From NCBI GenBank assembly GCA_947259795.1, contig CAMYNJ010000104.1:2130-66129 (forward strand): 64,000 nt of DNA, given 5' to 3'. Positions 10,723-55,365 of the stretch are shown here, one piece after another. The position numbers and the translations under genes are program-made. Origin of the DNA: an uncultured Alphaproteobacteria bacterium. Lineage in GTDB: Bacteria > Pseudomonadota > Alphaproteobacteria > UBA8366 > JADFVY01. Numbering within the stretch: the first letter of the stretch is position 1; each line of letters starts with the position of its first letter. The notes beneath the pieces were generated by a model. That model searched no databases. It was not told the origin of the DNA and worked only from the letters and a program-made list of their open reading frames with translations.

Positions 10723-10747
10723 GGAACGACGTTCCGCTATATGGCAC
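10723..10747 (+). promoter_or_regulatory. Tripartite operator site 1 (GGAAC-N3-GTTCC-N7-GGAAC family)
   Basis: GGAAC GAC GTTCC GCTATAT GGCAC, in the intergenic region between the amidohydrolase gene and the DUF6455-like ORF. Confidence 0.6.
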
Positions 10748-10913
10748 ATTTTGTTTCTGGCGTTGACGACCAGTCAGTCAATACGAAGGAGCGGGTTTCA
10801 TGGAGATTTTTTCACTGCTGTTTTTGGCGGCTTACGCAATTCTTATCCTCTGGGGTCTTGGAACCGTTTTACGGTCCTACAAGCCGAGCGGGCGGGCGCT
10901 TCAATTTCCGCGC

Positions 10914-11111
10914 ATGGCCAAGAGCCTGGGTGTCTCCGTCGCCGATATCGCCGATTCCAGCCTTGCCCCTCACCTGCAGACGGCTGACCTCTTTTGCGCG
11001 AACTGCACAGACAAGAAAGCCTGCGAAGCATGGCTGGCGACCCACGAATCCGCGGCCGAACCCCCGGAATTCTGCGTTAACGCCAGCTATCTGCGCCTCG
11101 CCAAGAGCTGA
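10914..11111 (+). CDS. Small Cys-motif protein, DUF6455-like
   Basis: MAKSLGVSVADIADSSLAPHLQTADLFCANCTDKKACEAWLATHESAAEPPEFCVNASYLRL fits the CxxC-x6-CxxWL...FCxN layout I recall for DUF6455. The ORF-track start at 10800 adds a hydrophobic, low-GC3 N-terminus and is an alternative. Confidence 0.5.
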   Translation: MAKSLGVSVADIADSSLAPHLQTADLFCANCTDKKACEAWLATHESAAEPPEFCVNASYLRLAKS

Positions 11112-11303
11112 ATAACCGTCGCAAAGGAAGTTCCCGCGCACATCGCCTTGAAAGCGGTGGTGTACGGCACCGGCGACAGGCGCTTCGACAATATCGGCGA
11201 CTTCATCCCCCGCACCAAACCGGCCGCCATACTGCAACGTTGCAAGGAAGTCGCCGGATACGACCTTGCTTGCCTGAACGAGATGGCTGCGGTTCCTCCC
11301 CGC

Positions 11304-11328
11304 GGAACAGCGTTCGTGACATAGGAAT
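11304..11328 (+). promoter_or_regulatory. Tripartite operator site 2
   Basis: GGAAC AGC GTTCG TGACATA GGAAT, 110 nt upstream of the tctC-like start. A fourth half-site (GTTCC at 11292-11296) lies N7 further upstream. Confidence 0.6.
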
Positions 11329-11437
11329 GAAACGGCGTATATTCGAATAATCATACGCTCGAGCGCCCGGTCGGCATGTTACTCCGTAACAATACGCCGG
11401 AGAAAAGCGCCGGGTGACCGAACGGGAGGAACCAAAA

Positions 11438-12460
11438 ATGTCTATCCGAATCTTGAAAATTGCCTTGGCGGCGGTGGCGGCGCTGGCAGTATCGACCGCG
11501 GCGCGAGCGGATTCCGTCGCGGATTTTTATAAGGGCAAAACGGTTGAATTCTATATCGGCTACAGCGTGGGTGGCGGTTACGACACCTATGCGCGCCTGA
11601 TTGCCCGCCATATTGGCAAACACATCCCTGGCAACCCGACGGTGGTGCCGAAGAATATGCCGGGCGCCGGCAGCCTGAAGCTCACCAACTGGCTTTACGA
11701 GGCAGCACCCCAGGACGGCACCGTGTTGGGCTCGGTCGCCCGTGCGGCGCCTTTCGATCCGCTGTTCGGGAACAAGAAGGCCATGTTCACGGCCGACAAG
11801 TTCAACTATATCGGCAGCGCCAATAACGAGGTCAGCATCTGTGCGGCGATGGCCGATACCGGCATCAAGACCGTCGACGATCTCAAGAGCAAGGAACTGA
11901 TTGTCGGCGGTACCGGCGACACTGCCGATACTGTGCAGTTTCCGAAAATCCTGAACGCGGTGCTGGGTACGAAGTTCAAGATCATCAACGGCTATCCGGG
12001 CGGCAAGGACGTGGTGCTGGCCATGGAGCGCGGCGAGGTTCATGGCCGTTGCGGCTGGTCCTGGTCCAGCGTGAAAGCCAAGAACAGGGACTGGCTCGAT
12101 GAAGGCAAGATGACCGTCATCATGCAGCTCTCAACCAGCAAGCATTCCGAACTGCCGGATATCCCGCTGGTCATGGATCTTGCGAAATCGGACGCCGACA
12201 AGGCTCTGTTGACGCTGATTTTCGCGCGTCAGGAACTGGGTCGGCCCTATGTGGCGCCGCCGAACATCCCGGCCGAGAGAGTTGCCGCCCTGCGCGCGGC
12301 CTTTGACGCCACCATGAAGGATCCGGAATTCCTTGCCGAGGCGAAGAGCGCCGATCTGGAACTGGCCCCGGTTTCGGGCGCCAGGGTTCAGGAACTGGTA
12401 AAGGAATCTTATACGACCGACCCGGCAGTCGTGGCGCGAATTAATAAAATCCTCAATTAA
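11438..12460 (+). CDS. tctC: Tripartite tricarboxylate transporter substrate-binding protein (TctC/Bug family)
   Basis: It has the signal peptide MSIRILKIALAAVAALAVSTAARA, then DFYKGKTVEFYIGYSVGGGYDTYARLIARHIGKHIPGNPTVVPKNMPGAGS, the Bug-family N-terminal signature. An RBS GGGAGGA precedes ATG 11438. Confidence 0.9.
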   Translation: MSIRILKIALAAVAALAVSTAARADSVADFYKGKTVEFYIGYSVGGGYDTYARLIARHIGKHIPGNPTVVPKNMPGAGSLKLTNWLYEAAPQDGTVLGSVARAAPFDPLFGNKKAMFTADKFNYIGSANNEVSICAAMADTGIKTVDDLKSKELIVGGTGDTADTVQFPKILNAVLGTKFKIINGYPGGKDVVLAMERGEVHGRCGWSWSSVKAKNRDWLDEGKMTVIMQLSTSKHSELPDIPLVMDLAKSDADKALLTLIFARQELGRPYVAPPNIPAERVAALRAAFDATMKDPEFLAEAKSADLELAPVSGARVQELVKESYTTDPAVVARINKILN

Positions 12461-12478
12461 GAGAGGGTGATGGCGGGG

Positions 12479-12515
12479 GCGGCGTCGCCGGCAACGGCGG
12501 CGCCGCTTCTTATTT
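12479..12515 (+). terminator. Rho-independent terminator-like hairpin after tctC
   Basis: GCGGCG-T-CGCCG GCAA CGGCG-G-CGCCGC followed by TTCTTATTT. Confidence 0.6.
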
Positions 12516-12564
12516 CAGCGGACCGCTAAAGGAATACAGGCATGCATCCGCGCGGAGGCTTCGA

Positions 12565-13386
12565 TTGAATAAGACAGGCATTGTCGGCGTGGGGCGCATG
12601 GGGCGTGCCATGGCCCGGCATCTGATAAAGGGCGGGTTTCCGGTTACCGCCGTCGATGGCAGCCGCGAGGCGGCGGATGCCGCGGCGGCACTGGGCGCGG
12701 AAGTGGTTGCCACGCCGGGGGCGCTGGCCGCCGCCTGCCATACGGTTTTCATAGCGGTGGGTTTCGACGAAGAGGTCGAGGCGGTCTGCCGGGGCGACGA
12801 CGGCATTTTCCAGGGCGCCCGGCCTGGGACAATCGTCGTCGTCAACAGCACGGTATCCGTCGAACTGGTGCGGCGTCTGGCCGATGAGGCCGCGGCGCGG
12901 GGACTGCGTTTTCTCGATATACCCATTGCCCGTGGCCGGCCCGCGGCCGAGGCGGGCACATTGCTGGCGCTGGCCGGTGGCGATGTGGCGGTGCTGGATG
13001 AAGTGCGGCCAATGTTGGAGACGTTCTGTTCCGACATTTCCCATCTCGGTGAGATCGGCCATGGTCAGGTCGCCAAGGCGATAAACAATCTGCTTTTGTG
13101 GATCAACGGCGTCGGGCTGATGGAGGCCGGGCGGCTGGCCGAGGGAACCGGCATCGATTTGGCCGCACTGCGGGACGCCATGCTGATGAGCAGCGGCCGC
13201 TCCTGGGCTCTGGAAAACTGGAACAGCGTCACCTTCACCTGGGCGCTGAAGGACATGCAGCTGTTGCTGGATATGTGCGACCGGACAGGAGGAGCTTTCC
13301 CGCTGACGGGGCTGGTCAAGGAACTGGTAAAGGACGGCCGCGAATCCAAACTGCGCGGCGACGCACCGGGCTGGACAAAGGATTAA
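12565..13386 (+). CDS. NAD(P)-dependent beta-hydroxyacid dehydrogenase (3-hydroxyisobutyrate dehydrogenase family), paralog 1 of 3
   Basis: GIVGVGRMGRAMARHL (Rossmann fold) and GHGQVAKAINNLLL (catalytic Lys motif). It has a TTG start. Paralogs lie at 15699-16529 and 25539-26399. Confidence 0.85.
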   Translation: MNKTGIVGVGRMGRAMARHLIKGGFPVTAVDGSREAADAAAALGAEVVATPGALAAACHTVFIAVGFDEEVEAVCRGDDGIFQGARPGTIVVVNSTVSVELVRRLADEAAARGLRFLDIPIARGRPAAEAGTLLALAGGDVAVLDEVRPMLETFCSDISHLGEIGHGQVAKAINNLLLWINGVGLMEAGRLAEGTGIDLAALRDAMLMSSGRSWALENWNSVTFTWALKDMQLLLDMCDRTGGAFPLTGLVKELVKDGRESKLRGDAPGWTKD

Positions 13387-15667: not shown

Positions 15668-15692
15668 AGAACAGCGTTCCCCATATGGGAAC
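15668..15692 (+). promoter_or_regulatory. Tripartite operator site 3
   Basis: AGAAC AGC GTTCC CCATATG GGAAC, between the dehydrogenase stop (15699) and the cupin A1 start (15602). Confidence 0.65.
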
Positions 15693-16586: not shown

Positions 16587-16611
16587 GGAATGCCGTTCCG
16601 CCAACCGGAAC
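16587..16611 (+). promoter_or_regulatory. Tripartite operator site 4
   Basis: GGAAT GCC GTTCC GCCAACC GGAAC, in the divergent region between the dehydrogenase (start 16529) and the tctA-tctB fusion (start 16694). Confidence 0.65.
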
Positions 16612-16693: not shown

Positions 16694-18751
16694 ATGGACG
16701 GCGGCATGCTCGACGCGGCGCTTCAGGCGCTGTCCGCGATGATGGAATTCGAGCGCCTGGGCTATCTGTTCGCCGGTGTCATCGTTGGATTGCTGTTTGG
16801 TATTCTGCCCGGTGTGGGCGGGATCGCCGGCATGGCACTGCTGTTGCCCTTCACATTCGGCATGGATGCCTATTCGGCTTTCGCGTTCCTGCTGGGGCTG
16901 GGCGCCGTGACCTCGACCGGCGATACCATCCCGGCCGTGCTGTTCGGCGTGCCAGGCACATCGGCTTCCCAAGCGACCGTAATCGACGGTCATGCCATGG
17001 CCAAGAAGGGCGAAGCGGGCAGGGCGCTAAGCGCCGCCTATACGGCGTCGCTGCTGGGTGGACTGTTCGGCGCGCTGCTGCTGGCGCTGACGATCCCGGT
17101 GCTGCGGCCAATCATGCTCTATATCGGTTCGCCTGAGCTGCTGGCCTGCGCCGTGTTCGGCATATCGATGGTCGCGGTGCTGTCGGGCAACGCGCCCCTG
17201 CGCGGGCTGTCGATTGCCGGGTTCGGCATCACGCTGTCGATGATCGGCGGCGATCCACAGACCGGGACCCAGCGCTGGTCGCTCGACACGCTCTATCTCT
17301 ATGACGGATTGCCGTTATTGCCGCTGGCTCTTGGCATTTTCGCGCTTCCCGAACTCTGTGACCTTGCGATCAAGCGCACGTCGATCGCCAGCGAAGCGAA
17401 ATACGACGTGAAGAGCGGCATGCTGAAGGGCGCGCAAGATACCCTTCAAAACTGGTGGCTGGTGATGCGATGTGGCGGCCTTGGCGCGGCCATCGGCGCG
17501 ATTCCGGGGCTCGGTTCGGCGGTGGTCGACTGGTTCGCCTACGGCCATGCGATCCGTACCGAAAAGGGCGCGACATCGACTTTCGGCAGCGGTGACGTGC
17601 GCGGCGTAATCGCGCCGGAAAGCGCCAACAACGCGAAAGAGGGTGGGGCGCTGGTTCCCACCGTGGCCTTCGGCGTGCCGGGCAGCGCCAGCATGGCAAT
17701 CCTGCTGGGCGCCTTCATGATCCACGGGCTGCAGCCCGGTCCGCGCATGCTGATCGAGAACCTGAATGTTACCTATGCGATGGTCTGGTCCATTGCGCTG
17801 GCCAATATTCTTGGCGCGGGACTCTGCTTCCTGTTCAGCGGCCAATTCGCCAAGATCGCGACTCTGCGCTATACGCTGATCCTGCCGGCGGTCATGACCG
17901 TACTCTATGTTGGCGCCTTCCAGGGCACCCGCGACTGGGGCGATCTGTACGCCCTGCTGTTCTTCGGCGTGCTGGGCTGGACCATGAAGCGGCTGCGCTG
18001 GCCGCGGCCGCCGCTGATCCTGGGCTTCGTACTGGGCGCCATCATCGAGCGCTACATGTTCATTTCCGTGGCGCGTTACGACTGGGAATGGCTTTACCGG
18101 CCCGCCGTCGCGATTTTGCTGGCCATGGCGGTACTGGGCGTGATTCGCCCGCTGGTCGGCGAATATCTGGCCAATCGCAGGGCCGGCCGCGTCACGACCC
18201 TGATCGGCCGCCCGGCCTTCCATCCGTCCGGTCTGTTCCATGTCGCCCTGATTGCGTTGATCCTGGCCATGATCGCCGAGACCGGAAGCTGGGAAGACGA
18301 GGCGAAAATCGCGCCGCTGATCGTCGCCTGGTTCGCCGTGGGCTGTGCCATCGTCAGCCTGTTCAACCAGGTATTCCGGGTTCCCGCTATCGCTCGGGCC
18401 GCGCAGGAGGCGGCCGGATCGGACCAACCGCGCTCGATCCATATGGATCTGGTGGCCGACGACACATGGCTGACGCCTGGATTGATCGTCCGCCGCGCGG
18501 CGCTCTTTTTCAGCTGGCTGGTCGCCTTCATGGCATCAATGGCGGTCATAGGCATATTGCCGACTGCGTTCCTGTTCGTGGCTGCCTACATGCGGCTGGA
18601 AAACAGGGAACCCTGGCGGCTGGTGCTGGTGATGGCCGGCGGTATCGCCCTGTTCGTCTATGTGGTTTTCGACCGCTTCCTGACGATCCCGTGGCCTGCC
18701 ACCTTGCTGGGCAAGGTGATCCCGGCCTTGAAGTTCATACCAACGATATGA
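16694..18751 (+). CDS. tctA: TTT large permease TctA fused to a C-terminal TctB-like small-subunit domain
   Basis: The N-terminal ~500 aa align with the two other TctA proteins in the window (GILPGVGGIAGMALLLPFTFGMD, PESANNAKEGGALVPTVAFGVPGSA). The C-terminal ~190 aa align with the stand-alone TctB genes (SWEDEAKIAPLIVAW..., RRAALFFSWLVAFMASMAVIGILPTAFLFVAAYMRLENREPWRLVL). RBS GGGAGGA precedes ATG 16694. Confidence 0.85.
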   Translation: MDGGMLDAALQALSAMMEFERLGYLFAGVIVGLLFGILPGVGGIAGMALLLPFTFGMDAYSAFAFLLGLGAVTSTGDTIPAVLFGVPGTSASQATVIDGHAMAKKGEAGRALSAAYTASLLGGLFGALLLALTIPVLRPIMLYIGSPELLACAVFGISMVAVLSGNAPLRGLSIAGFGITLSMIGGDPQTGTQRWSLDTLYLYDGLPLLPLALGIFALPELCDLAIKRTSIASEAKYDVKSGMLKGAQDTLQNWWLVMRCGGLGAAIGAIPGLGSAVVDWFAYGHAIRTEKGATSTFGSGDVRGVIAPESANNAKEGGALVPTVAFGVPGSASMAILLGAFMIHGLQPGPRMLIENLNVTYAMVWSIALANILGAGLCFLFSGQFAKIATLRYTLILPAVMTVLYVGAFQGTRDWGDLYALLFFGVLGWTMKRLRWPRPPLILGFVLGAIIERYMFISVARYDWEWLYRPAVAILLAMAVLGVIRPLVGEYLANRRAGRVTTLIGRPAFHPSGLFHVALIALILAMIAETGSWEDEAKIAPLIVAWFAVGCAIVSLFNQVFRVPAIARAAQEAAGSDQPRSIHMDLVADDTWLTPGLIVRRAALFFSWLVAFMASMAVIGILPTAFLFVAAYMRLENREPWRLVLVMAGGIALFVYVVFDRFLTIPWPATLLGKVIPALKFIPTI

Positions 18752-18802
18752 CAGACGAATTTGTGGCTGGCCCACGACAACAAAGGAGAATGGAGATTTC
18801 AT

Positions 18803-19390
18803 ATGTCGAATAAACCCGATAATCCCGAAGGCATAGGCCACAACAGTGAGACTGGCCAGAAGGAGGAAGTTGTCTGGGAACGCTGGACCAAAAAGCGGAC
18901 CTTCGTCCGTGGGCTGGAAGGCACATATGGCGAGCTATACAACGAGCTTTACTCGCAGCCGCGCGTCTACCATACCAGCGATCTGAATTGGAAAGGCGGG
19001 CCACAGAACTTCGGCAAGAAGGTCATCAATCCGCAGGCCTGCCGCGTCGCCCAGTCCATCGAAACCCATATCGACGCCTTTGCGCCCGGTGGCTATGGCC
19101 AGAAGCACGGCCATATGAACAGCGCTGTGTTCTTCGTCCTGAAAGGCAAGGGGCACGACATCCATGACGGTCGGCGGCTCGACTGGGAGGCCGGCGACGC
19201 GCTGATCGTGGAAAATGCCTGCGTCCATCAGCATCTGTCCGACGACACGGATGACGAGACGATCGTTCTGGTGATGAAAGCCAAGCCGCTCTTCCTGTTC
19301 ATGCACATGATCTTCCAGAAGGTGGTCGAATATCCGCCCACGGAACCAGCGCCAGGCCAGGACGGCTATGAGCCGCCGGCTTCCCTGTAA
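18803..19390 (+). CDS. Monocupin, type A, pair 2
   Basis: The start is MSNKPDNPEG. The cupin motifs are APGGYGQKHGHMNSAVFFVLKGKG and GDALIVENACVHQHLS. The tail KPLFLFMHMIFQKVVEYPPTEPAPG matches cupin A1. Confidence 0.8.
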   Translation: MSNKPDNPEGIGHNSETGQKEEVVWERWTKKRTFVRGLEGTYGELYNELYSQPRVYHTSDLNWKGGPQNFGKKVINPQACRVAQSIETHIDAFAPGGYGQKHGHMNSAVFFVLKGKGHDIHDGRRLDWEAGDALIVENACVHQHLSDDTDDETIVLVMKAKPLFLFMHMIFQKVVEYPPTEPAPGQDGYEPPASL

Positions 19391-19424
19391 CGCGCCAGAA
19401 CCAAGATCCGGAGGAATGAGAGAA

Positions 19425-20015
19425 ATGAACGATCTGAAACCCTTTGTCGACGCGACCGAGCGTGAACGCGCGCGCTCCGGCGACACTTACGTCAATTTCT
19501 ACAACGAGGCGCTGGAAGCCTCGAAGATGTTCCGCAAGGAATATCAGGACCGCATGAATGTCGTGAAATGGCATGAGATGCCCATGGAACGTTCCGCGGA
19601 TGGGCTGATAAAGCACATCATCAACGAGCGCATGGACACCAAGGAATGCTGCATCGACATCTACATGCAATTCATCCAGCAGAACGGCGCGACCGGGACC
19701 AGCCGGCATCTGTCGGAAGAGGTCGCCTTCGTTATCGAAGGAACCGGCCACGACCTGCATTACGATGTGCGGTTCGATTGCGGCGACGAATTTGTCTGGG
19801 AATGGGAAACCACGCCTAAAAAATACGAATGGGGCCCGGGCGACTTTGTCTATATCCCGCCCTATTGCGCCCACAAGCGCTTCAACACCGGCAGTGAGGA
19901 AGCGCGTGTCGTGGTCGTCAACAGCCGCATTATGAAGTCGATTGGCCTCGACTGGTTCGACCAGCTGGAGCCGGCCGAAGGGTATGAAGACCTGTGGGTC
20001 CCGCCCGCAGACTGA
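19425..20015 (+). CDS. Monocupin, type B, pair 2
   Basis: The start is MNDLKPF, with GGAGGA 10 nt upstream and ATG 19416 as an alternative. The cupin motifs are GTSRHLSEEVAFVIEGTG and GDFVYIPPYCAHKRFN. The HxH is reduced to a single His (SRH). Confidence 0.8.
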   Translation: MNDLKPFVDATERERARSGDTYVNFYNEALEASKMFRKEYQDRMNVVKWHEMPMERSADGLIKHIINERMDTKECCIDIYMQFIQQNGATGTSRHLSEEVAFVIEGTGHDLHYDVRFDCGDEFVWEWETTPKKYEWGPGDFVYIPPYCAHKRFNTGSEEARVVVVNSRIMKSIGLDWFDQLEPAEGYEDLWVPPAD

Positions 20016-20026
20016 AATTGTAGCGA

Positions 20027-20066
20027 GGCGGCGCGCAAAAAAAAGAAACTGGGCGCGCCGCCTTTT
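20027..20066 (+). terminator. Rho-independent terminator-like hairpin
   Basis: GGCGGCGCGC - 16-nt A-rich loop - GCGCGCCGCC followed by TTTT. It lies between the cupin pair and tctC. Confidence 0.6.
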
Positions 20067-20093
20067 GGAAGATGACAAACCGGGAGAAACGTC

Positions 20094-21308: not shown

Positions 21309-21314
21309 CCAAAT

Positions 21315-21349
21315 GGCCGCCCGGGTGAAGTAACTCCGCCCGGGCGGCC
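21315..21349 (+). promoter_or_regulatory. Intercistronic GC-rich hairpin between tctC and tctA
   Basis: GGCCGCCCGGG - 13-nt loop - CCCGGGCGGCC. No clean U-tract follows (CTGTAATATTTT). Confidence 0.5.
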
Positions 21350-21381
21350 CTGTAATATTTTCAAACGGATCGGTTGTAATC

Positions 21382-28727: not shown

Positions 28728-30014
28728 TCAGACCGAAGACTGGCGAACGCCGGGGCGGGCCATAAGATCTTCCTTACACGCGTCCTTGTAGGCCTTGTCC
28801 GGCGGCAGGATCACCGCCGCCGAGCGCACCTTCTGGTGAACCGGATCGACACCCGGCGGCCGGACGCCCTTATCCTTGAGCTCCATCGCCGCCTTACGCA
28901 GACGGTTGCGCGCCATGATGATGCCGTTGTCGGTAGAGACCAGATTTTCCTTGGTGCGGTCGACGATCGGCCCCATGCTTTCCTGTATGGATGCGTCCTG
29001 CATGCCGATTCCCGTGATCCCGGAAAAGGTTTCGCCACGGCGCTGGGCCTCACGGTCCATCAGGTAGTCGTTGTCCTTGTTGGCAGCGGGCCGATATGTG
29101 CCGGGCACATATTTCACATGCACTCCCTTGCCGTCCTGCATGGCCTGGCGTTCCTCGCCCGTCAGCGCGCGGACCGGATGATAGTCGTAGCTCCAGGCCC
29201 AGCAATTATGGTCGTCGATCGGGATCCAGAAATGACCGTGCATGGGATGGTCGCCGCGCGGCGGCACCATGGTGAAGCTGGGCATGACCCAGGGCGTTAT
29301 GCGCCAGTAGTATTTTCCATCTTCGGCGTTGCGGCGGGCGCCGATATAAAGCCCGCCGTCGCTCTCGGTGACCTCGAAGACCGGCATCTTGTCCTGCTGG
29401 TTATACTTGTTGCCGGCGGCGCCCTTGAACAGCGGGTCGCGCTGCAGGTCGCCGCTATGCAGCCAGGAGACGTGACTGGAGTCGATACCGCCTTCCATGG
29501 CCTGCAGCCAGTTGCATTCCTGCAGGCGCTTGGAGGTAAAGGACTGTTCCGCCGGCACCGTCGCGAATTCCCATTCCGGCAGGGGCGGCTGCTGTTCTGC
29601 GGCGCCCATATAGGTCCACAGGACGTCGCCGATCTTAACCAGCGGATAGCCGGCCAGTTTGATTTTCTCGCAAAACCCGCTTTCCGTGGGCTCGGAGGGC
29701 ACCTCGATACATTGGCCGGTCACATCGAATTTCCAGCCGTGATAGGGGCAGCGCAGCCCGTGTTCCTCGTTGCGCCCAAACCATAGAGAGGCGCCGCGAT
29801 GGGGGCAGAATTCGTCGATCAGCCCGTACTTCCCATCGGTGTCGCGGAAGGCAATCAGACGTTCACCAAGCAGCTTGACCCGCACCGGCGGGCAGTCGTT
29901 CTCGGGCAGTTCCTCGGCCAGAAGCGCCGGGATCCAGTACTGCCGGTACATCTCGCCCATGGGCGTGCCGGCATCCGTCTGGGTCAGAAGATCGTTTATT
30001 TCCTTGCGCAGCAT
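28728..30014 (-). CDS. Rieske [2Fe-2S] non-heme-iron oxygenase, phthalate-dioxygenase family (alpha subunit only)
   Basis: The start MLRKEINDLL is preceded by GGGAGGA. The Rieske motif is CPHRGASLWFGRNEEHGLRCPYHGWKF and the iron site is NWLQAMEGGIDSSHVSWLH. Overall it is collinear with phthalate 4,5-dioxygenase-type proteins. No beta-subunit gene is present. Confidence 0.9.
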   Translation of the reverse strand: MLRKEINDLLTQTDAGTPMGEMYRQYWIPALLAEELPENDCPPVRVKLLGERLIAFRDTDGKYGLIDEFCPHRGASLWFGRNEEHGLRCPYHGWKFDVTGQCIEVPSEPTESGFCEKIKLAGYPLVKIGDVLWTYMGAAEQQPPLPEWEFATVPAEQSFTSKRLQECNWLQAMEGGIDSSHVSWLHSGDLQRDPLFKGAAGNKYNQQDKMPVFEVTESDGGLYIGARRNAEDGKYYWRITPWVMPSFTMVPPRGDHPMHGHFWIPIDDHNCWAWSYDYHPVRALTGEERQAMQDGKGVHVKYVPGTYRPAANKDNDYLMDREAQRRGETFSGITGIGMQDASIQESMGPIVDRTKENLVSTDNGIIMARNRLRKAAMELKDKGVRPPGVDPVHQKVRSAAVILPPDKAYKDACKEDLMARPGVRQSSV

Positions 30015-30126: not shown

Positions 30127-30151
30127 GTTCTTGCATGCGGAACGCTGTTCC
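30127..30151 (-). promoter_or_regulatory. Tripartite operator site 5
   Basis: The minus strand reads GGAAC AGC GTTCC GCATGCA AGAAC, between the divergent oxygenase and ferredoxin genes. Confidence 0.65.
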
Positions 30152-31761: not shown

Positions 31762-31786
31762 GGACCGCCGGTCCGTATAGCGGAAC
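31762..31786 (+). promoter_or_regulatory. Tripartite operator site 6
   Basis: GGACC GCC GGTCC GTATAGC GGAAC, in the 138-bp divergent region between bicupin 1 and EutA-like 1. The 18-mer CGGTCCGTATAGCGGAAC is identical to site 7. Confidence 0.65.
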
Positions 31787-35716: not shown

Positions 35717-35751
35717 ACGCGGCGCGCCGTCATCGAACGGGGGCGCGCCGC
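35717..35751 (-). promoter_or_regulatory. Intercistronic GC-rich hairpin between tctC and tctA
   Basis: CGCGGCGCGCC - 13-nt loop - GGCGCGCCGCG (11-bp stem), in the 81-bp tctC-tctA spacer. Confidence 0.5.
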
Positions 35752-35767
35752 GCCAGGTTACAAGACG

Positions 35768-36721: not shown

Positions 36722-37055
36722 TGGTTGGTCTCCTTGTCCCTATCTGGTTTCGGCCCGGCTAGTTTCGGACCGGCCCCACCGAGTTGTTATATTTGCCCCC
36801 CAAAGCGGGGAGAGCGCACACTGTACCACGAGTTACCGAAGGCCGGGAGCGACCGTGACCGATAAAATCCGGCACAGATTCCTGACCGACCGCGACCGCC
36901 CGGCGATGGATGCCGCCGGTTGCGGCGCGCGCAGGGGTCCTGGCGAACGGCCCGTGGCGAGGCGGCCCGGAAAGCCGTTCCCCGCATCGCGGCGCCGATC
37001 GCGGCGGATTGCCACAAGATCGATTCTATCTGCCGGGCTGACATATCGTTTCCAC

Positions 37056-37571: not shown

Positions 37572-37596
37572 TGCGCTCCCGCCCATCCCATCTTTT

Positions 37597-40360: not shown

Positions 40361-40385
40361 GGGACGACGGTCCGTATAGCGGAAC
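40361..40385 (+). promoter_or_regulatory. Tripartite operator site 7
   Basis: GGGAC GAC GGTCC GTATAGC GGAAC, 63 nt upstream of the bicupin 2 start. Confidence 0.65.
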
Positions 40386-43709: not shown

Positions 43710-43734
43710 AGAACGGCGTTCCGCATAAAGGAAC
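43710..43734 (+). promoter_or_regulatory. Tripartite operator site 8
   Basis: AGAAC GGC GTTCC GCATAAA GGAAC, in the divergent region between the Mo-subunit gene and the TPP-enzyme gene. Confidence 0.65.
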
Positions 43735-45601: not shown

Positions 45602-45626
45602 AGAACAGCGTTCCGCAATGAGGAAC
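45602..45626 (+). promoter_or_regulatory. Tripartite operator site 9 (in front of / overlapping the IclR gene start)
   Basis: AGAAC AGC GTTCC GCAATGA GGAAC. It contains the first in-frame ATG (45618) and lies 25 nt upstream of the alternative ATG at 45651. Confidence 0.65.
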
Positions 45627-46475
45627 GACAAGCAGATTGCAGGGAATGTCATGACACGGTCAGACCACACGGTAACCGGCGCGGCCGGTGGCGACGAGCC
45701 CAAGTCCCGGCTGTCTTCTGTCACCACGGCCATCCGGCTGTTGAAAGCCTTTACGGAAAGCGACCGCGAGATCGGCATCAGCGCGCTGTCCAAGAAGCTC
45801 GGCGTATCCAAGAGCACGGTGCATCGCGTCGCGACGACGCTGGTCGCCGAGGGGTTGCTGGAACAGAATCCGGAAACCGACCGTTACCGGTTGGGCCTGG
45901 CGCTGTTTTCGCTGGGCACCCTGGTGCGCCGGCGCATGGATATCCCCAACGAGGCGAAGCCCTTCCTGTCGAAGCTGCGCGATTCGTCGAAGGAAAACAT
46001 CCATCTGGCCGTGCTGCAGGGTACCGAGGTCGTCTATGTCTATGACATGGAAAGTTCCCAGGCGGTGCGCGTGCGGCCGCATCTCGGCGCATCCAAGCCA
46101 TTGAATTGTTCGGCCGAGGGCCTGACGATCCTGGCGTGGCAGTCCGAATCCTTTATCGACAAGGCCTTGTCCGTTTCGTTGTTGCCGCGCACCGACAACA
46201 CCATGACGGACCCCGCAAAAATCAAGGCACGGCTGGAGAAGGTTCGCAGCGACGGTTATGCGCTGGAGGACGAAGAGAGCGAAATCGGCATGCGCTGCGT
46301 GGCCGCACCGATCCGCGATGCCGAGGGAAATGTGGTCGCGGCCGTAGGTGTCGCGGGACCCAGTCAGCGGCTGTCCACCCACGCCATCAAGAACTTCGCC
46401 CCCCAGGTTCGGGAAGCGGCGGAATCCATATCAATGCGGCTCGGCTATCGGGCGGGCGCCAAGCGATACGCCTGA
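45618..46475 (+). CDS. IclR-family transcriptional regulator
   Basis: It has an N-terminal wHTH (SSVTTAIRLLKAFTESDREIGISALSKKLGVSKSTVHRVATTLVAEGLLEQ) and a C-terminal IclR effector domain (GYALEDEESEIGMRCVAAPIRDAEGNVVAAVGVAGP). The true start may be ATG 45651. Confidence 0.85.
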   Translation: MRNDKQIAGNVMTRSDHTVTGAAGGDEPKSRLSSVTTAIRLLKAFTESDREIGISALSKKLGVSKSTVHRVATTLVAEGLLEQNPETDRYRLGLALFSLGTLVRRRMDIPNEAKPFLSKLRDSSKENIHLAVLQGTEVVYVYDMESSQAVRVRPHLGASKPLNCSAEGLTILAWQSESFIDKALSVSLLPRTDNTMTDPAKIKARLEKVRSDGYALEDEESEIGMRCVAAPIRDAEGNVVAAVGVAGPSQRLSTHAIKNFAPQVREAAESISMRLGYRAGAKRYA

Positions 46476-46500: not shown

Positions 46501-47505
46501 ATGCCAACAATCCGTATCGAGGGAACGGAGATCGAGTTCGAATCCGCGCCGGACGACGTTGTGCTGCGCGCCGCGCTGCGCAGCGGGCTGGGATTTCCAT
46601 ATGAATGCAATGTGGGCGCCTGCGGCAATTGCCGGTTCGAGCTGCTGGAAGGCAAGGTCGAACATGAATGGGACAGCCCGCCGGCCTGGGGCGATCGCGA
46701 CCTGAAGCGCAACCGGTATCTGGGCTGCCAGGCCCGCGCCCTGACCGATTGCCGGATCAAGCTGCGGCAAGATGAAAGCTGCGTCAGCAAACACCGGCCG
46801 TTACGGACCCGCGCCCGCCTGACGGAAACCCGCCCCATCACCCACGATATCAGCGAATTCGCCTTCATGCCGGACGAGGCGGTTTCTTTCCTGCCCGGTC
46901 AATATGCGTTGCTGGATTTGCCGGGTGTCGAGGGCAGGCGGGCCTATTCGATGTGCAACCTGCCGTCCGACGGCGGCGCGTGGCGGTTTCAGATCAAGCG
47001 CGTGCCCGGCGGCGCGGGAACGGCAAAGCTGTTCGACGGGCTGAATGAAGGCGACGAGGTCGGTATCGACGGCCCCTTCGGCATGGCCTGGCTGCGCGAG
47101 GACGCGCCGCGCGACATCGTCTGCATCGCCGGCGGGTCCGGCCTGTCGCCGATGATCTCCATCGTGCGGGCCGCCGCCGCCAGCGAATCGCTCGCCGGCC
47201 GGCAGATCCACTTCTTCTACGGCGGGCGTGCGCCACGGGATATCTGCGGCGAGGCGTTGCTGGGCGAACTACCGGGCTGGGGCGAGCACATCCATTATTG
47301 CGCCGCCATTTCCGAGGAAGGCCACGGCGACTGGCCCGGGCCCGTCGGCTTCGTGCATGATCTGGCGCGCAAGGAACTGGGCGAGAGCCTCGCGGGGCAT
47401 GAAATTTATTTTGGCGGCCCGCCAGCCATGTCGCAGGCGGTGCAGAAAATGCTGTTCGATCTGAAAGTGCCCTTCGGGCAGGTCCATTTCGATCAGTTCT
47501 TTTGA
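46501..47505 (+). CDS. Oxygenase reductase: plant-type [2Fe-2S] ferredoxin domain fused to an FNR-like FAD/NAD(P)-binding domain
   Basis: The start is MPTIRIEG. CNVGACGNCRFEL belongs to the Cx4CxxC...C cluster, RAYSM is the flavin-binding motif, and IAGGSGLSPM is the NAD(P)-binding motif. Confidence 0.85.
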   Translation: MPTIRIEGTEIEFESAPDDVVLRAALRSGLGFPYECNVGACGNCRFELLEGKVEHEWDSPPAWGDRDLKRNRYLGCQARALTDCRIKLRQDESCVSKHRPLRTRARLTETRPITHDISEFAFMPDEAVSFLPGQYALLDLPGVEGRRAYSMCNLPSDGGAWRFQIKRVPGGAGTAKLFDGLNEGDEVGIDGPFGMAWLREDAPRDIVCIAGGSGLSPMISIVRAAAASESLAGRQIHFFYGGRAPRDICGEALLGELPGWGEHIHYCAAISEEGHGDWPGPVGFVHDLARKELGESLAGHEIYFGGPPAMSQAVQKMLFDLKVPFGQVHFDQFF

Positions 47506-51275: not shown

Positions 51276-51578
51276 CTAACAGCAGTCGCAGCCCAGCTCA
51301 CCGTAATCGACCAGCGAGGGCAACAGCCAGGAGACCGGCAGGTCGTCGGCCGCGACCGCCGCCACCGGCGTGAAGAGCTTGAAGCGGTAGCGCGTGCCCT
51401 CGTCGCCGGTCCAAAAGGCGACAACGGTTTCGACCGGTGGACAGCCGGGCACCTGGCACTGGATCTCGGCGACCATGATCACGGCCTCGCCCGACAGCCC
51501 GAACCGCGCGCGCGTCCATTCGCGCACGCGCGCCAGCGCCGCCAAATGCTCCGGGTTCCTGCGAAAACTGCCCAGCAT
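51276..51578 (-). CDS. Small conserved-looking hypothetical protein (PGCPP motif, C-terminal CDCC)
   Basis: MLGSFRRNPEHLAALARVREWTRARFGLSGEAVIMVAEIQCQVPGCPPVETVVAFW...GELGCDCC*. The internal start is at 51578. No family name could be assigned with confidence. Confidence 0.5.
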   Translation of the reverse strand: MLGSFRRNPEHLAALARVREWTRARFGLSGEAVIMVAEIQCQVPGCPPVETVVAFWTGDEGTRYRFKLFTPVAAVAADDLPVSWLLPSLVDYGELGCDCC

Positions 51579-51926
51579 GCAAGCGGTTATAGGATATTGG
51601 AGAGGCGGGCGGAATCGCAAACGAGAGGTTCGAGCCCATGCGCCGGGATTTTTTGCGGGTTTCAGGGGTGATGTTATGGAAAATGGTGCAGGGGAATTGG
51701 TGTCCTGCGGGAGTGCCAACGGTTTATCGAGTGCAATTTCTTAAGTCGGTATTGTCCCGGAAACTCCCAAAGCGGGCCGTGGGCCGGGAACAGTCGCTAC
51801 TCGCCATATTGCGTCGCCAAATCAGCGCACGCGGCTGCTAGCATGATGACTTGCCGGGAAATTTCGGTATCATCCGGTCGGCGGGTTAAAAGCACGTTAT
51901 AAGAACGATAACTTGAAGGGGGGAAC

Positions 51927-52916
51927 ATGTCGAAGCTGGCACTGTCCATCGCGACCAACGATTACGATCATTTCCGCGACTTCCGGCTCGGGGACGTCAA
52001 GGCCGAGGGCATCGACCACAACTGGTTCGTCTTCACCCATCACGAATGCTTCGCGCGCTTCACGGCGAACCGCGAATTCGACCTGGCGGAACTTTCCTTC
52101 GCGAAATTCGCGACGCAAGTGACGCGCGAGGACAGCGACATCATCGGTCTGCCGGTGATCTGCTCCCGCCTGTTCCGCTTCAGCTCGTTCTACGTCAACC
52201 GCAACAGCGGCATCAAAACCGTCGGGGACCTGAAAGGCAAGCGGATCGGCTCGCCGGAATGGGCGCATTCGGCGGCCGTCTATATGCGCGGCTGGATGCA
52301 CAACGAGATGGGCGTGAAGCTGAACGACGTGCATTGGTTCCAGGCCGGGGCGAATGCGCCGGGGCGCGAGGAGAAGGTGGAGTTGAACCTGCCGGAGGGC
52401 GTGAAGCTGACCCGTGTCCGCGACAAGTCGCTGAGCGAATTGCTGGCCGCGGGCGAGATCGACTGCGCCATCATCGCCCGCCCGCCGACCTGTTTCCTGG
52501 AGGGTCACCCCGATGTGGTCCGCCTCTATCCGGACTATCTGGAGATGGAGGAGCAGTCTTACGAGCAGACCGGCGTCTGGCCGATCATGCATATCATCGC
52601 GATGAAGAAACGAATCCTCGACGAGCATCCCTGGGTCGCACGCAATCTCTTGAACGCCTTCGAGGAATCGAAACGCCGCAGCCTCGAGCGCCTGTTCGAT
52701 CCAGCGATCTCGCGCTACCCACTGGCTTGGCTTCCAACCTATGCCCGCCGGATGCGCGATATGTTCGGCGACGACCCCTTCCCCTACGGCATCGAGGAAA
52801 ACCGTCCGACATGGGAGCAGATGGCGCTCTATACCTATCAGCAGGGCATCGCGCATCGCCAGTTCGCGCCGGAGGAGATCTTCCCCAAGGGCATCATGAC
52901 CAAGGTCATCATCTGA
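51927..52916 (+). CDS. 4,5-dihydroxyphthalate decarboxylase-like protein, paralog 2
   Basis: MSKLALSIATNDYDHFRDFRLGDVKAEGID...EFDLAELSFAKF...IIGLPVICSRLFRFSSFY, collinear with 47533-48525. Confidence 0.7.
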   Translation: MSKLALSIATNDYDHFRDFRLGDVKAEGIDHNWFVFTHHECFARFTANREFDLAELSFAKFATQVTREDSDIIGLPVICSRLFRFSSFYVNRNSGIKTVGDLKGKRIGSPEWAHSAAVYMRGWMHNEMGVKLNDVHWFQAGANAPGREEKVELNLPEGVKLTRVRDKSLSELLAAGEIDCAIIARPPTCFLEGHPDVVRLYPDYLEMEEQSYEQTGVWPIMHIIAMKKRILDEHPWVARNLLNAFEESKRRSLERLFDPAISRYPLAWLPTYARRMRDMFGDDPFPYGIEENRPTWEQMALYTYQQGIAHRQFAPEEIFPKGIMTKVII

Positions 52917-52938
52917 CATTGCAGGCGAGCAAAAAGAA

Positions 52939-53685
52939 ATGAGCGAAACACCGACTTCCGGCGGACCCGTTGCCGCCGATCTGATCGCTGATCTGGCGGC
53001 GTCGAGCCGGGTGCTTGCCGCGCGCGGCGTCGTCGATGCCGCCGGACATGTATCCTTGCGTCATCCGCAGGCGCCCGACCGCTACCTGATGTCCTGCGCG
53101 AAGGCGCCGGCGCTGGTGACTCCCGACGACATCGTCGAATACGACCTGGACAGTAACCCCTGCAACGCCGGCGGGCGCGGGGTGTTTCTCGAGCGTTTCA
53201 TTCATGGCGAAATCTACAAGGCCCGGCCGGACATCAACTCGATCGTGCACAGCCACTCTCCGTCGGTTATCCCGTTCGGTCTGGTCGGCGTGGATGTGAA
53301 GGCGATGTTCCACAACGCGGCCTTTCTCGCGGCCGGCGCGCCTGTGTTCGATATCAGCGAGAAATTCGGCGCGACGGATATGGTCGTCGGCGATAGCGCC
53401 CGGGGCGAGGCACTGGCCAAATCGCTGGGCGACAAGGATATTGGATTGATGCGCGCGCATGGTTCCGTCGCCTGCGGCCCAACGCTGCAAATCGCCGTAT
53501 TTCGCGGGGTCTACACAGAGGTCAATGCCCGTATCCAGCACTGGACGACGGCGCTGGCCGCGGGCGGCCCGGTAGCCGCGCTGACCGAAGAGGAAGGCCG
53601 GCTGGCGGACGTGCTGAACCAGGGCGCCTGCAAGCGCGCATGGGAGCTCTGGCGCAGCGAAGTGCGGGCCGAGGCCGGCTGGTGA
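52939..53685 (+). CDS. Class II aldolase/adducin-domain protein (tandem copy 1)
   Basis: VVDAAGHVSLRHP, ERFIHGEIYKARPDINSIVHSHSP and LMRAHGSVACG. Confidence 0.85.
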   Translation: MSETPTSGGPVAADLIADLAASSRVLAARGVVDAAGHVSLRHPQAPDRYLMSCAKAPALVTPDDIVEYDLDSNPCNAGGRGVFLERFIHGEIYKARPDINSIVHSHSPSVIPFGLVGVDVKAMFHNAAFLAAGAPVFDISEKFGATDMVVGDSARGEALAKSLGDKDIGLMRAHGSVACGPTLQIAVFRGVYTEVNARIQHWTTALAAGGPVAALTEEEGRLADVLNQGACKRAWELWRSEVRAEAGW

Positions 53686-53707
53686 CGATCATACAAGGGA
53701 GCATGAA

Positions 53708-54397
53708 ATGAGCGAGACCGAACAGGCAAAGCAGCAACTCGTGGACTGCATCCGGATGCTGGAGCGGTCGGATATCATCGACTACAACGGGCATGCCAGC
53801 ATCCGCACCGGCGAGGACCGCATGCTCATCAATATCGGCTCCTGCCAGCGCAGCCTGCTCACGACCGACGACATTTGCACCATCGACTTCGACGGTAATC
53901 TGGTCAAAGGGAACGGCAAGCCGCCACTGGAATTCCACCTTCACGCCGGCATCTACAAGGCGCGCCCCGACGTGCAGGCGGTGGTGCATGCGCACCCCAA
54001 ATGGTCGACCTTCCTCACCATCGCCGGGGTTGGCTATCAGCCGGTGTTCGCCCAGGGCTCGCTGGTCTACCCGCTGCCGGTGCTCGATTCGCCGAATTCG
54101 ATCAACAATCCGGTGATGGCGAAGCGGCTGTCGGACACGCTGGGCGACCAGCCGGCGGCGCTGATGAAGGCGCATGGCGCGGTCAGCGTCGGCAAGGACA
54201 TCGTGGAAGCCTTCGTGCTGATCAACTACCTGGAAGAGAATGCCTACCGTCAGTATATGGCGATGCAGATCGGCAAGCCCTATGCGTTCACCGACGAGGA
54301 AATGCGGCTGTGCCGCGAGAAGCTGTGGAACCCTAATCTGTTCAAGCGAGCCTGGGATCACTTCCGGGCCAAGCTCGGCGCGGGCCTTCCGGCGTAA
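53708..54397 (+). CDS. Class II aldolase/adducin-domain protein (tandem copy 2)
   Basis: IIDYNGHASIR, EFHLHAGIYKARPDVQAVVHAHP and LMKAHGAVSVG. Confidence 0.85.
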   Translation: MSETEQAKQQLVDCIRMLERSDIIDYNGHASIRTGEDRMLINIGSCQRSLLTTDDICTIDFDGNLVKGNGKPPLEFHLHAGIYKARPDVQAVVHAHPKWSTFLTIAGVGYQPVFAQGSLVYPLPVLDSPNSINNPVMAKRLSDTLGDQPAALMKAHGAVSVGKDIVEAFVLINYLEENAYRQYMAMQIGKPYAFTDEEMRLCREKLWNPNLFKRAWDHFRAKLGAGLPA

Positions 54398-54412
54398 CCA
54401 GGGATAGTCGCG

Positions 54413-55264
54413 ATGTCACATCCGGAAAAATTCCTGCTGGCCGGTGTCATGGGCTGGCCGGTAATGCATTCGCGCTCGCCGCAGATGCATAATTACTGGT
54501 TCGAACAGCAGGGGCTGACCGGGACCTACGTTCCGCTGGCGATCGAACCTGGCACGCTAGGCCCGGCGCTGCGCGCGCTGCATCCGCTCGGCTTTGCTGG
54601 CTGCAACCTCACGATCCCGCACAAGCAGGACGCGATGGCCATCGTGGACGAGGTGGACGAGGTCGCGCGGCGCATCGGCGCGATCAGCTGCGTGGTGGTG
54701 CGGCCCGACGGTTCGCTGTTCGGCACCAACAACGACTGGCTGGGTTTCATCGGCAATCTGAAGCAGCAGCAGCCGGACTGGCGCGCCGACAAGGGGCCGG
54801 CGGCGGTCATCGGCGCCGGCGGCGGCGCCCGCGCGATCTGCTACGGCCTCATGCGTGAGGGCGCGCCGGAAATCCGGCTGATCAACCGCACCGTCGAGCG
54901 GGCCGAGGCCATCGCCGACGAATTCCGCGGCCCGATCCGCGCGCTGTCATGGGACGAGCGCCACGATGCACTCGACGGCACGGCCACGGTCGTCAACACG
55001 ACCAGCCTGGGGATGGAGGGTCAGCCGGATCTGGACCTGCGGCTCGACCGGTTGCCGAAGGCCGCGCTCGCCACCGACATCATCTACACGCCGCTGGAGA
55101 CGCCTTTCCTCGCCGCCGCGCGTGAACGCGGCAATTCCACCGTCAACGGCCTCGGCATGCTGCTGCACCAGGGGATCCCGGCGTGGAAGATGTGGTTCGG
55201 AATCGAACCCACCGTCACCGACGAATTGCGGGAGTTGATGGAGCGCAGCATCACCGGGAATTAA
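54413..55264 (+). CDS. Shikimate (or quinate/shikimate) dehydrogenase, AroE/YdiB family
   Basis: GWPVMHSRSPQMHN, GCNLTIPHKQ, NNDWLGF, VIGAGGGARAI and GLGMLLHQG are canonical AroE motifs. Confidence 0.85.
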   Translation: MSHPEKFLLAGVMGWPVMHSRSPQMHNYWFEQQGLTGTYVPLAIEPGTLGPALRALHPLGFAGCNLTIPHKQDAMAIVDEVDEVARRIGAISCVVVRPDGSLFGTNNDWLGFIGNLKQQQPDWRADKGPAAVIGAGGGARAICYGLMREGAPEIRLINRTVERAEAIADEFRGPIRALSWDERHDALDGTATVVNTTSLGMEGQPDLDLRLDRLPKAALATDIIYTPLETPFLAAARERGNSTVNGLGMLLHQGIPAWKMWFGIEPTVTDELRELMERSITGN

Positions 55265-55340
55265 AGCGGCGGCGCAAACAGTCCTTATTCTGAAAGGCTG
55301 CACCCCGTCCCCCATTTTCGCCCGCTCCGTTCTCCCAGGC

Positions 55341-55365
55341 GGAACGTCGTTCTTGCATGAGGGCC
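55341..55365 (+). promoter_or_regulatory. Tripartite operator site 10 (weaker third half-site)
   Basis: GGAAC GTC GTTCT TGCATGA GGGCC, with an additional GTTCT at 55329-55333 N7 upstream. It lies 61 nt upstream of the ADH start. Confidence 0.5.

Follow-up and report, generated by a model that had tools for sequence, protein, structure and literature searches.

A three-box operator motif predicted to define a large IclR-family regulon around an isophthalate-dioxygenase-type oxygenase in an uncultured alphaproteobacterium

A 64,000-nucleotide stretch of DNA from an uncultured Alphaproteobacteria bacterium (GenBank assembly GCA_947259795.1, contig CAMYNJ010000104.1, positions 2,130 to 66,129; hereafter the window, with positions counted from its first letter) contains eleven copies of a 25-bp element made of three 5-bp boxes, GGAAC-N3-GTTCC-N7-GGAAC. 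We propose, with a probability of roughly 80%, that the IclR-family regulator encoded at 45651-46475 uses this element as its operator and thereby controls about 15 transcription units (about 40 genes) between 9.3 and 59.3 kb of the window. The predicted regulon includes a three-component Rieske oxygenase resembling isophthalate dioxygenase (IPDO), six cupins, two EutA-like proteins, three tripartite tricarboxylate transporters (TTT), two thiamine pyrophosphate (TPP) enzymes, a molybdenum (Mo) hydroxylase subunit, several 6PGDH-like dehydrogenases, an operon for an alcohol dehydrogenase (ADH), a LigK-like and a LigJ-like protein, and iclR itself. The operator architecture is already known for the IclR family; what is new is the regulator subfamily, the size of the regulon and the pathway.

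We searched the window for GGAACNNNGTTCCNNNNNNNGGAAC on both strands, allowing up to three mismatches, and used 100 dinucleotide-preserving shuffles as the null. The window has 21 matches versus 1.85 +/- 1.53 in shuffled sequence, and none of the 100 shuffles reaches 21. The two-box sub-patterns taken alone are barely enriched (37 and 45 matches, each versus 30.7 expected), indicating that the three-box composite is the meaningful unit; we therefore rejected a two-box pattern as the real operator. A sequence-only reading of the window had listed ten sites by eye, all of which are present and read as written. We trained a 25-bp weight matrix on these ten sites, with 50 Markov-simulated windows as the null; when left out in turn, nine of the ten score 17-34 bits and the site at 55341 scores 8 bits, the null maximum being 19.1. 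That reading had allowed for more than ten sites, and the matrix indeed finds an eleventh (operator 1; Table 1). The 5-3-5-7-5 spacing, described as strict from the ten sites, is kept in all eleven. All eleven sites are in non-coding sequence, which makes up 11.6% of the window (P about 5e-11), and their edges are 24-137 nt upstream of refined start codons. The sequence-only reading had placed every site upstream of an operon or between divergent genes; non-coding location holds throughout, but the sites at 15668 and 40361 lie between co-directional genes and hence mark internal promoters rather than operon starts. Weak matrix matches within coding sequence, at 18877, 30498, 35259 and 42241, score only 8-13 bits, which is within the null range, and we treat them as chance.

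To look beyond the window, we scanned one genome per GTDB species for relatives and obtained 62 loci, 59 of which encode an IclR protein at least 50% identical to that of the window. These 59 loci are from Alphaproteobacteria (Xanthobacteraceae, other Hyphomicrobiales and Rhodospirillales) and Betaproteobacteria (Paraburkholderia, Rhodoferax, Ramlibacter, Ideonella and Pigmentiphaga). Across their 975 kb, the window matrix gives 139 raw matches of at least 17 bits versus 1-3 in second-order Markov shuffles; the raw matches merge to 105 sites, none of them within an annotated coding sequence. The motif is conserved upstream of orthologous genes: of the 105 sites, 52 precede the IclR ortholog by no more than 400 bp and 31 occupy the gap between divergent Rieske oxygenase and ferredoxin genes. 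By contrast, none of the three loci with a non-orthologous IclR protein (25-33% identity) has a match of at least 17 bits; non-orthologous locus L062 has a single match of 14.6 bits, under the null maximum for the window. No other transcription-factor gene is conserved across these loci. In the 59 loci, the proteins most conserved as partners of the regulator are a Rieske oxygenase (32 loci) and its Rieske ferredoxin (33); next come a Fer2-FAD-NAD reductase (21), an EutA-like protein (18), several cupins (14-18), and TctC-type binding proteins and a Zn-dependent dehydrogenase with 13 loci each. Hence, the motif recurs with the IclR ortholog and at its promoter, which is the co-conservation expected of a regulator/operator pair. 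In a cultured strain, Rhizobium sp. WYJ-E13, a plasmid module consists of a ferredoxin gene divergent from genes for a Rieske protein, a hypothetical protein, IclR (54% identical) and a reductase, with three sites. In the metagenomic contig L063, whose IclR protein is 94% identical, the operator, -35 and -10 are kept at three orthologous positions.

Several relatives differ in gene content or placement. Contig L063 has two insertions that are absent from the window (2404-3162 and 8692-9759 of the contig), which carry a gene for a short-chain dehydrogenase/reductase (SDR) and, between TPP_2 and IclR, a 355-aa gene without a Pfam match. The SDR gene is on the right side of the Cupin_5 operator, 21 bp away and in the direction in which boxes 1 to 3 run; since it is present in L063 and absent from the window, the main-direction target of the Cupin_5 operator has apparently been lost in the window. 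The genome of the window is not itself among the GTDB species representatives; the closest relative in that collection, L001 (CAXMQC010000515.1), is a 3-kb contig with two operators, an IclR protein 79% identical and a Mo-hydroxylase 83% identical. It is binned as Akkermansiaceae (Verrucomicrobiota); since every other relative is proteobacterial, an error in binning is a likelier explanation than transfer. Lastly, plasmid p2MP of Arthrobacter sp. 68b (L067, 7236-13004) has genes for a 58%-identical Rieske oxygenase, a Zn-dehydrogenase, a hypothetical protein and a VanB-type reductase next to a gene for a 531-aa protein with two IclR-like halves, so that the association of the oxygenase with IclR reaches the Actinobacteria, with a different regulator architecture.

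The regulator has the two expected domains by Pfam, an N-terminal helix-turn-helix (HTH) domain (PF09339, 2.1e-14) and a C-terminal effector domain (PF01614, 1.2e-49), and it is the only transcription factor that Pfam detects between 9.3 and 59.3 kb. The sequence-only reading had the gene begin at 45618, and the 285-aa protein read from there has no match in an exact look-up; the gene is confirmed, but its most likely start is the ATG at 45651, and the nearest database homologs, 94% identical, are also 274 aa long. With this start, the site that the same reading had noticed directly before, or over, the start of the gene is 25 bp upstream of it. The genes after IclR encode a Fer2-FAD-NAD reductase (46501-47505), an NMT1-like protein, a PanB-like protein and an alpha/beta hydrolase (to 50241). 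Homologs of the regulator in the PDB include 1MKM, KdgR, AllR and PcaR, and the names given to it in public sources are generic only. Its scores fall short of the NCBIfam cut-off for TIGR02431 (PcaR/PcaU/PobR; 161 bits versus 284.75) and of the equivalog cut-offs for BhcR (187 versus 350), KdgR (178 versus 275), IclR (116 versus 380) and AllR (107 versus 406).

Pooling of the 105 sites shows the three boxes to be similarly informative. The first spacer has C as its third base, the second follows the pattern g-A-t-a, and the consensus over boxes 2 and 3 is cGTTCCg.Ata..GGAAC. Exactly 7 nt upstream of box 1 there is a weak, GTTCC-like fourth box (box 0, consensus "ttct"), with a mean match of 2.2/5 versus 1.0-1.4 at most neighbouring offsets and 1.76 at the adjacent offset -13; there is no extra box after box 3 in the pooled sites. 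In Betaproteobacteria box 0 is often good, as in ATTCT-N7-GGAAC-N3-GTTCC-N7-AGAAA. The sequence-only reading had reported a fourth half-site at 11304 and 55341; that at 11304 is perfect (11292-11296), that at 55341 is partial (GGGCC at 55361, whose reverse complement GGCCC matches GTTCC at 3/5), and a further partial one is found at 10711. The locus at 55341 scores 25.9 bits on the minus strand versus 20.7 bits in the plus-strand reading, and since both readings match, we describe it as a four-box site, 55329-55365. The full element is thus two 17-bp palindromes, GTTCC-N7-GGAAC, 3 bp apart, with one outer half-site degenerate; the palindrome centres are 20 bp apart, equivalent to two helical turns.

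The position of the element relative to promoters, all of which are consensus predictions, is similar at several genes. Upstream of IclR, TTGACG (45572) and TACATT (45595) are separated by 17 bp and box 1 follows after 2 bp; for TPP_2, TTGACA (43678) and TAGAGT (43702) are separated by 18 bp and box 1 follows after 3 bp; for EutA_1, TTGACG (31725) and TAAACT (31747) are separated by 16 bp and box 1 follows after 10 bp. Operator 6 is downstream of a predicted TTGACG-17-TAGCCT promoter, with boxes 1 to 3 facing the oxygenase, such that these four promoters share the form TTGAC(A/G)-16..18-(-10) with box 1 within 1-12 bp. The same arrangement is seen in relatives: about 25 Alphaproteobacterial loci have aTTGACAc-N17-cTAGATt upstream of the IclR ortholog, with box 1 within 1-4 bp, and in 29 loci the site in the oxygenase/ferredoxin gap is preceded by a TTGACA-17-(-10) promoter, with boxes 1 to 3 directed toward the oxygenase in every case except L053, where they are directed toward the ferredoxin. 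The -10 hexamer is between box 0 and box 1, and its occupation of that stretch would explain why the outer left half-site is degenerate. At the divergent partners Cupin_4, Cupin_5 and Mo-hydroxylase, the three strong boxes are instead directly next to the -35, which box 0 would cover, a placement compatible with occlusion but also with activation; at operator 8 it is box 1 that abuts the predicted -35 (TTGACG, minus strand).

We propose that IclR would bind the element as a tetramer (dimer of dimers) occupying the two adjacent 17-bp palindromes, as the weak fourth box suggests. The bound protein would cover the -10 and transcription start at some promoters and the -35 at others, which is the layout of a repressor, and would thereby prevent transcription; given binding, we consider it probable that IclR is a repressor. 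A substrate or intermediate of the pathway, probably a meta-dicarboxylated aromatic acid, would then bind the IclR_C domain and cause release of the protein. The earlier interpretation, a single autoregulated IclR regulon, is supported by the co-conservation of the motif in 59 species and by IclR being the sole transcription-factor gene in the span; the exception is the operon at 51927-55264 (NMT1-like, two class II aldolases and a shikimate dehydrogenase), where no site was detected, so that not all genes of the 45 kb are in the regulon.

Other observations weigh against our proposal. No convincing promoter can be placed at 10400, 10723, 15668, 16587 or 55329. The boxes at Cupin_5, Cupin_4 and Mo-hydroxylase are just upstream of the -35, where an activator could also act. 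Alpha- and Betaproteobacterial loci do not agree in how the site is oriented with respect to the IclR gene. Because the matrix was trained on the ten sites of the sequence-only reading, the orientation chosen for them also introduces a bias into which of the outer boxes appears weak. It is also possible that there are sites elsewhere in the genome, or a second IclR paralog of the same specificity.

We considered whether the same protein and operator might work mainly by activation, as for PcaU, PobR, PcaR and TphR, with IclR recruiting RNA polymerase beside the -35. Boxes 1-3 are indeed immediately upstream of the predicted -35 at Cupin_5 (40361), Cupin_4 (31762) and Mo-hydroxylase (43710, minus-strand promoter), many catabolic IclR regulators activate (PMC8222616), and the NCBIfam score is nearer to that of PcaR/PcaU/PobR (161 bits) than to those of IclR or AllR. 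However, the operator is 1-12 bp after the -10, over the transcription start, at IclR, TPP_2, EutA_1 and the oxygenase, an arrangement kept in dozens of relatives; the weak box 0 would overlie the -35 of the divergent promoters; and IphR, a regulator that we compare with this one below, is a repressor (PMC13040137). We therefore regard activation as unlikely. An alternative possibility is that a regulator encoded outside the window, either an IclR paralog or an unrelated HTH protein, binds the motif, with the IclR gene at 45651 merely one of its targets. Many IclR orthologous groups share boxes of the GGAAC/GTTCC kind, but the motif travels with this particular IclR group across Alpha- and Betaproteobacteria, is at its promoter in most loci, and is accompanied by no other conserved transcription-factor gene, making an outside regulator very improbable. 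Lastly, a generic repeat (similar to repetitive extragenic palindromic or miniature inverted-repeat elements) or a chance pattern with no regulatory role would account for the motif being short and repeated and for nothing further, and is effectively refuted by an enrichment of more than ten-fold over shuffles, the strict spacing, flanks that are dissimilar save for one paralogous pair (operators 7 and 8), the location of every copy upstream of genes with none between convergent genes, and the retention of the motif at orthologous promoters across 59 species amid diverging surrounding sequence.

Three-box operators have precedents in this family. A survey of 1340 IclR-family transcription factors (Suvorova and Gelfand, 2021; Front Microbiol 12:675815, PMC8222616) distinguished group 1 motifs, GKTYCRYW3-4RYGRAMC, from group 2 motifs, TGRAACAN1-2TGTTYCA, and predicted three-box sites for 32 orthologous groups (199 transcription factors), in which one pair of boxes is of group 1 and the overlapping pair of group 2. 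The window element appears to be of the same type, in the GTT-11-AAC subgroup: it combines the same 17-bp group 1 palindrome, GTTYC-RY-W3-RY-GRAAC, with an overlapping pair that has the group 2 core, GRAAC-N3-GTTYC. Boxes 2 and 3 differ from the group 1 consensus at 0-2 of 17 positions in six of the eleven sites and at 3-7 in the others, mostly in the spacer. Boxes 1 and 2 match the group 2 core with 0-2 mismatches, but the published flanking T...A and inner A/T are not conserved, the spacer in the window sites being n-G/n-C. The survey also found that tandem IclR sites 19-21 bp apart are frequent, attributing them to tetramers, and that site centres are mostly 20-80 nt upstream of genes (PMC8222616). 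The window regulon is unusually large for a local IclR regulator, and two features of the element are reported here but not in that survey: the asymmetry caused by a weak fourth box over the -10, and an orientation that always faces the main promoter. In the part of its supplementary tables examined, there is no match to the HTH sequence of our group (...LSSVTTAIRLLKAF...SKSTVHRV...LLEQNPE...); look-ups of HTH peptides and operators in those tables return only other groups (Bphyt_2208 and Aaci_1624), with related boxes. Aaci_1624, which has the same SKSTVHR recognition helix, has predicted sites cGTTCCGCATAGAGaAACA there, i.e. GTTCCGCATA..GGAAC-like (PMC8222616).

Individual regulators provide further comparisons. 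The operator of PcaU and PobR of Acinetobacter baylyi adds to a palindrome a third box, without which binding fails, and there is autoregulation (Popp et al., 2002, cited in PMC8222616). The likeness, drawn in part by the sequence-only reading, lies in an IclR-family regulator of aromatic catabolism with such an operator and a site at its own gene. That comparison was right in spirit, but the third box of PcaU/PobR is an external direct repeat of a half-site (PMC8222616), whereas box 3 in the window is inverted relative to box 2, so that the boxes alternate (-> <- ->). In addition, the PcaU/PobR boxes are of the GTTCG/CGNAC type rather than GTTCC/GGAAC, and PcaU and PobR are mainly activators, unlike the repressor predicted here.

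IphR of Comamonas sp. E6 represses the isophthalate operon and is released by the substrate (Kamimura et al., 2012, cited in PMC8222616 and PMC13040137); the iph operon, which is homologous, has a TctC-type receptor, and the IclR-type IphR responds to isophthalate (PMC13040137). As in the window, the regulator is encoded with an isophthalate-dioxygenase-type oxygenase, a reductase and a TctC-type binding protein, and its operator is listed as a palindrome with an additional downstream half-site (PMC8222616). Nonetheless, the listed IphR operator, GTCTCATCAGAC plus ATGGAC, is unrelated in sequence to GGAAC-N3-GTTCC-N7-GGAAC (PMC8222616), the window oxygenase has F249R, F333I and a separate ferredoxin, and the window regulon is about ten times larger. 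There is no Comamonas locus among the 62 relatives, including the 59 at 50% identity or above. For the proposed four-box, 37-bp footprint, the structural model is the TtgV-operator complex (PDB 2XRO; Lu et al., 2010, cited in PMC8222616), in which a tetramer (dimer of dimers) sits asymmetrically on a promoter-overlapping operator of about 40 bp; TtgV differs in its distant similarity (E = 5.7e-15), its operator sequence and its function, regulation of an efflux pump.

The identity of the oxygenase bears on the likely inducer. Relative to IPDO-KF1, the active site retains the carboxylate-binding R234 and H257, as well as G172 and V178; T175S, I246V and I294V are conservative, and F249R and F333I alter the pocket, the latter pair suggesting a substrate with an extra polar or anionic substituent. 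Unlike two-component IPDO, the oxygenase is paired with a separate Rieske ferredoxin (30209-30526), and its transcription unit possibly extends as a long operon to RidA at 23378. We infer that the pathway is induced by, and acts on, a meta-dicarboxylated aromatic or heteroaromatic acid that is not simply isophthalate. More tentatively, and at somewhat less than even odds, the regulon may represent an undescribed pathway for a substituted acid of this kind, under a new IclR subfamily whose asymmetric 3+1-box operator would be embedded in the promoter in a fixed orientation; its components would be the altered-pocket oxygenase, the highly conserved cupin/EutA-like pairs, the TPP enzymes and the TTT transporters. 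These comparisons assign no pathway to the downstream enzymes, namely the cupins, EutA-like proteins, TPP enzymes, RidA, Mo-hydroxylase subunit and LigK/LigJ-like proteins, and a literature search for the combination of IclR, Rieske, cupin and TTT found no paper. We also considered lumichrome/riboflavin catabolism, which shares TPP enzymes, a Mo hydroxylase, a Rieske oxygenase and amidases (PMC12746152), and rejected it because that pathway has an alpha/beta Rieske dioxygenase and a P450, with no cupin, EutA or TTT content (PMC12746152).

Table 1. Three-box sites of the window, numbered from left to right, and selected genes and operons
Feature	Position	Strand	Description
Operator 1	10400..10424	-	GGAAT-ggc-GTTCG-ctaacgc-GGAAT; 20.1 bits though outside the training set; absent from the earlier list; 96-120 nt upstream of Amidohydro_2 gene (9291-10304, -; likely start 10304)
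Operator 2	10711..10747	+	Three boxes 10723-10747 plus partial fourth box GATCT at 10711; 53 nt upstream of DUF6455 gene (10800-11111, +)
Operator 3	11292..11328	+	Four boxes, GTTCC-N7-GGAAC-N3-GTTCG-N7-GGAAT; fourth box perfect (GTTCC, 11292-11296); overlaps predicted -35 (GTGACA, 11316) of TctC_1 / 6PGDH-like operon (11438-13386, +)
Operator 4	15668..15692	+	66 nt upstream of Cupin_1 (start 15602, -), between co-directional genes
Unit downstream of operator 4			Cupin_1 and sixth cupin (14386 to about 14990), possibly EamA_1
Operator 5	16587..16611	+	Divergent gap between 6PGDH-like gene (start 16529, -) and TctAB-cupin-cupin-TctC-TctA-TctB operon (16694-23329, +)
Rieske oxygenase alpha subunit	28728..30014	-	Predicted core target of the regulon; close homolog of isophthalate dioxygenase IPDO-KF1 (PDB 9INA), E about 1e-144
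Operator 6	30127..30151	-	Divergent gap between IphA-like Rieske oxygenase (28728-30014, -) and Rieske ferredoxin (30209-30526, +)
Operator 7	31762..31786	+	Gap between Cupin_4 (start 31695, -) and EutA-like 1 (start 31810, +)
Operon behind operator 8	33565-40298	-	Cupin_5, EutA-like 2, TctB, TctC, TctA, methyltransferase
Operator 8	40361..40385	+	63 nt upstream of operon 33565-40298 (-)
Mo-hydroxylase gene	start 43646	-	Followed by EamA_2
Operator 9	43710..43734	+	Top score; gap between Mo-hydroxylase large subunit (start 43646, -) and TPP enzyme 2 (43766-45562, +)
Operator 10 (predicted autoregulatory site)	45602..45626	+	Ends 25 nt before IclR start 45651
IclR-family regulator	45651..46475	+	274 aa; HTH_IclR and IclR_C domains; recognition helix SKSTVHRV
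Operator 11	55329..55365	-	Four boxes; best three-box reading 55329-55353 (-), AGAAC-gac-GTTCC-gcctggg-AGAAC; 61 nt upstream of Zn-ADH, CobW, RraA/LigK-like, Amidohydro_2/LigJ-like operon (55426-59293, +)

The gene map was built from Pfam scans, analysis of start codons and Shine-Dalgarno sequences, and full-length homolog matches. Near its left end, three operators share a 1.1-kb gap that also holds the DUF6455 gene, with its own operator (10723); the encoded protein of 103 aa has an N-terminal hydrophobic helix and conserved cysteines, and its gene has a good Shine-Dalgarno sequence. The sixth cupin gene (minus strand) is directly downstream of Cupin_1 and is a paralog of it, with 80% identity over 41 nt (repeat D12). 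There are two paralogous modules of a cupin and an EutA-like (PF06277) ASKHA protein, 30550-33552 and 37597-40298; Cupin_4 and EutA_1 are divergent, while Cupin_5 and EutA_2 are co-directional and overlapping, and the operators of the two modules, 7 and 8, are themselves paralogs with 88% identity over 34 nt covering the operator and the -35 region (repeat D16). Since a B12-dependent lyase is absent nearby, the role of the EutA-like proteins is probably other than reactivation of ethanolamine ammonia-lyase. Between Alpha- and Betaproteobacteria, identity is 77-87% for the cupins, which are thus much better conserved than the regulator (50-60%). Neither the bicupin (30550-31695) nor EutA-like 1 has a homolog in a PDB search, and none of ten regulon proteins scanned reaches the cut-off for a named NCBIfam equivalog.

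Two conserved hypothetical proteins have no Pfam family, 28173-28688 (-) and 51298-51639 (-). The gene for the former follows the Rieske oxygenase gene both in the window and in Rhizobium sp. WYJ-E13 (42% identity); Arthrobacter sp. 68b has a hypothetical gene of similar size two genes downstream of its Rieske gene, with no tblastn match to the window at E <= 1e-5. The latter has a 45%-identical homolog in the Rhizobium module. In the operator 11 operon, a CobW/COG0523 metallochaperone GTPase gene (56465-57577, +) is between those for the Zn-dependent dehydrogenase and the RraA/LigK-like protein, and CobW homologs also adjoin the oxygenase in the Paraburkholderia loci L016 and L019; the CobW protein may supply metal to the Zn-dehydrogenase or the cupins. 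About 3.8 kb to the left of the first operator there is a tRNA-Ala(CGC) gene (6570-6645, +) within a long open reading frame (ORF), 6440-8509, from which it follows that the FAD-dependent aromatic hydroxylase starts later, at about 6850. This tRNA gene led us to consider a genomic-island origin, which is unsupported because base composition is uniform across the window. At the other end, 59320-64000 contains an amidase gene, two dihydropyrimidine-dehydrogenase-like genes (PydA type) and a TetR/RutR-like regulator gene cut by the window end; this region has no three-box site and looks like a separate unit for reductive pyrimidine catabolism.

Three features stand out: the predicted regulon is large for one under a local IclR regulator, its operator is embedded in promoters in a fixed orientation, and its gene content is uncharacterised. 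The motif provides a sequence-based definition of a regulon that is conserved in many soil Alpha- and Betaproteobacteria, with carriers that include Xanthobacteraceae, Rhizobiaceae megaplasmids, Paraburkholderia, Caballeronia and Rhodoferax. With more than 100 sites in 60 species, it is a well-populated case of the three-box IclR architecture, and the overlap with the -10 box suggests a possible reason for one weak outer half-site. The regulon brings cupins, EutA-like ATPases and TPP enzymes, previously without a known connection, together with an isophthalate-dioxygenase-type oxygenase, which leaves a smaller field in which to look for new enzyme chemistry and the substrate. The regulator and its element are also a candidate repressor/operator pair for biosensors of phthalate-like compounds. 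Indeed, if the regulon does represent a new pathway, the operator would be a handle, both for defining the regulon and as a biosensor, with which to discover the substrate and the new enzymes.

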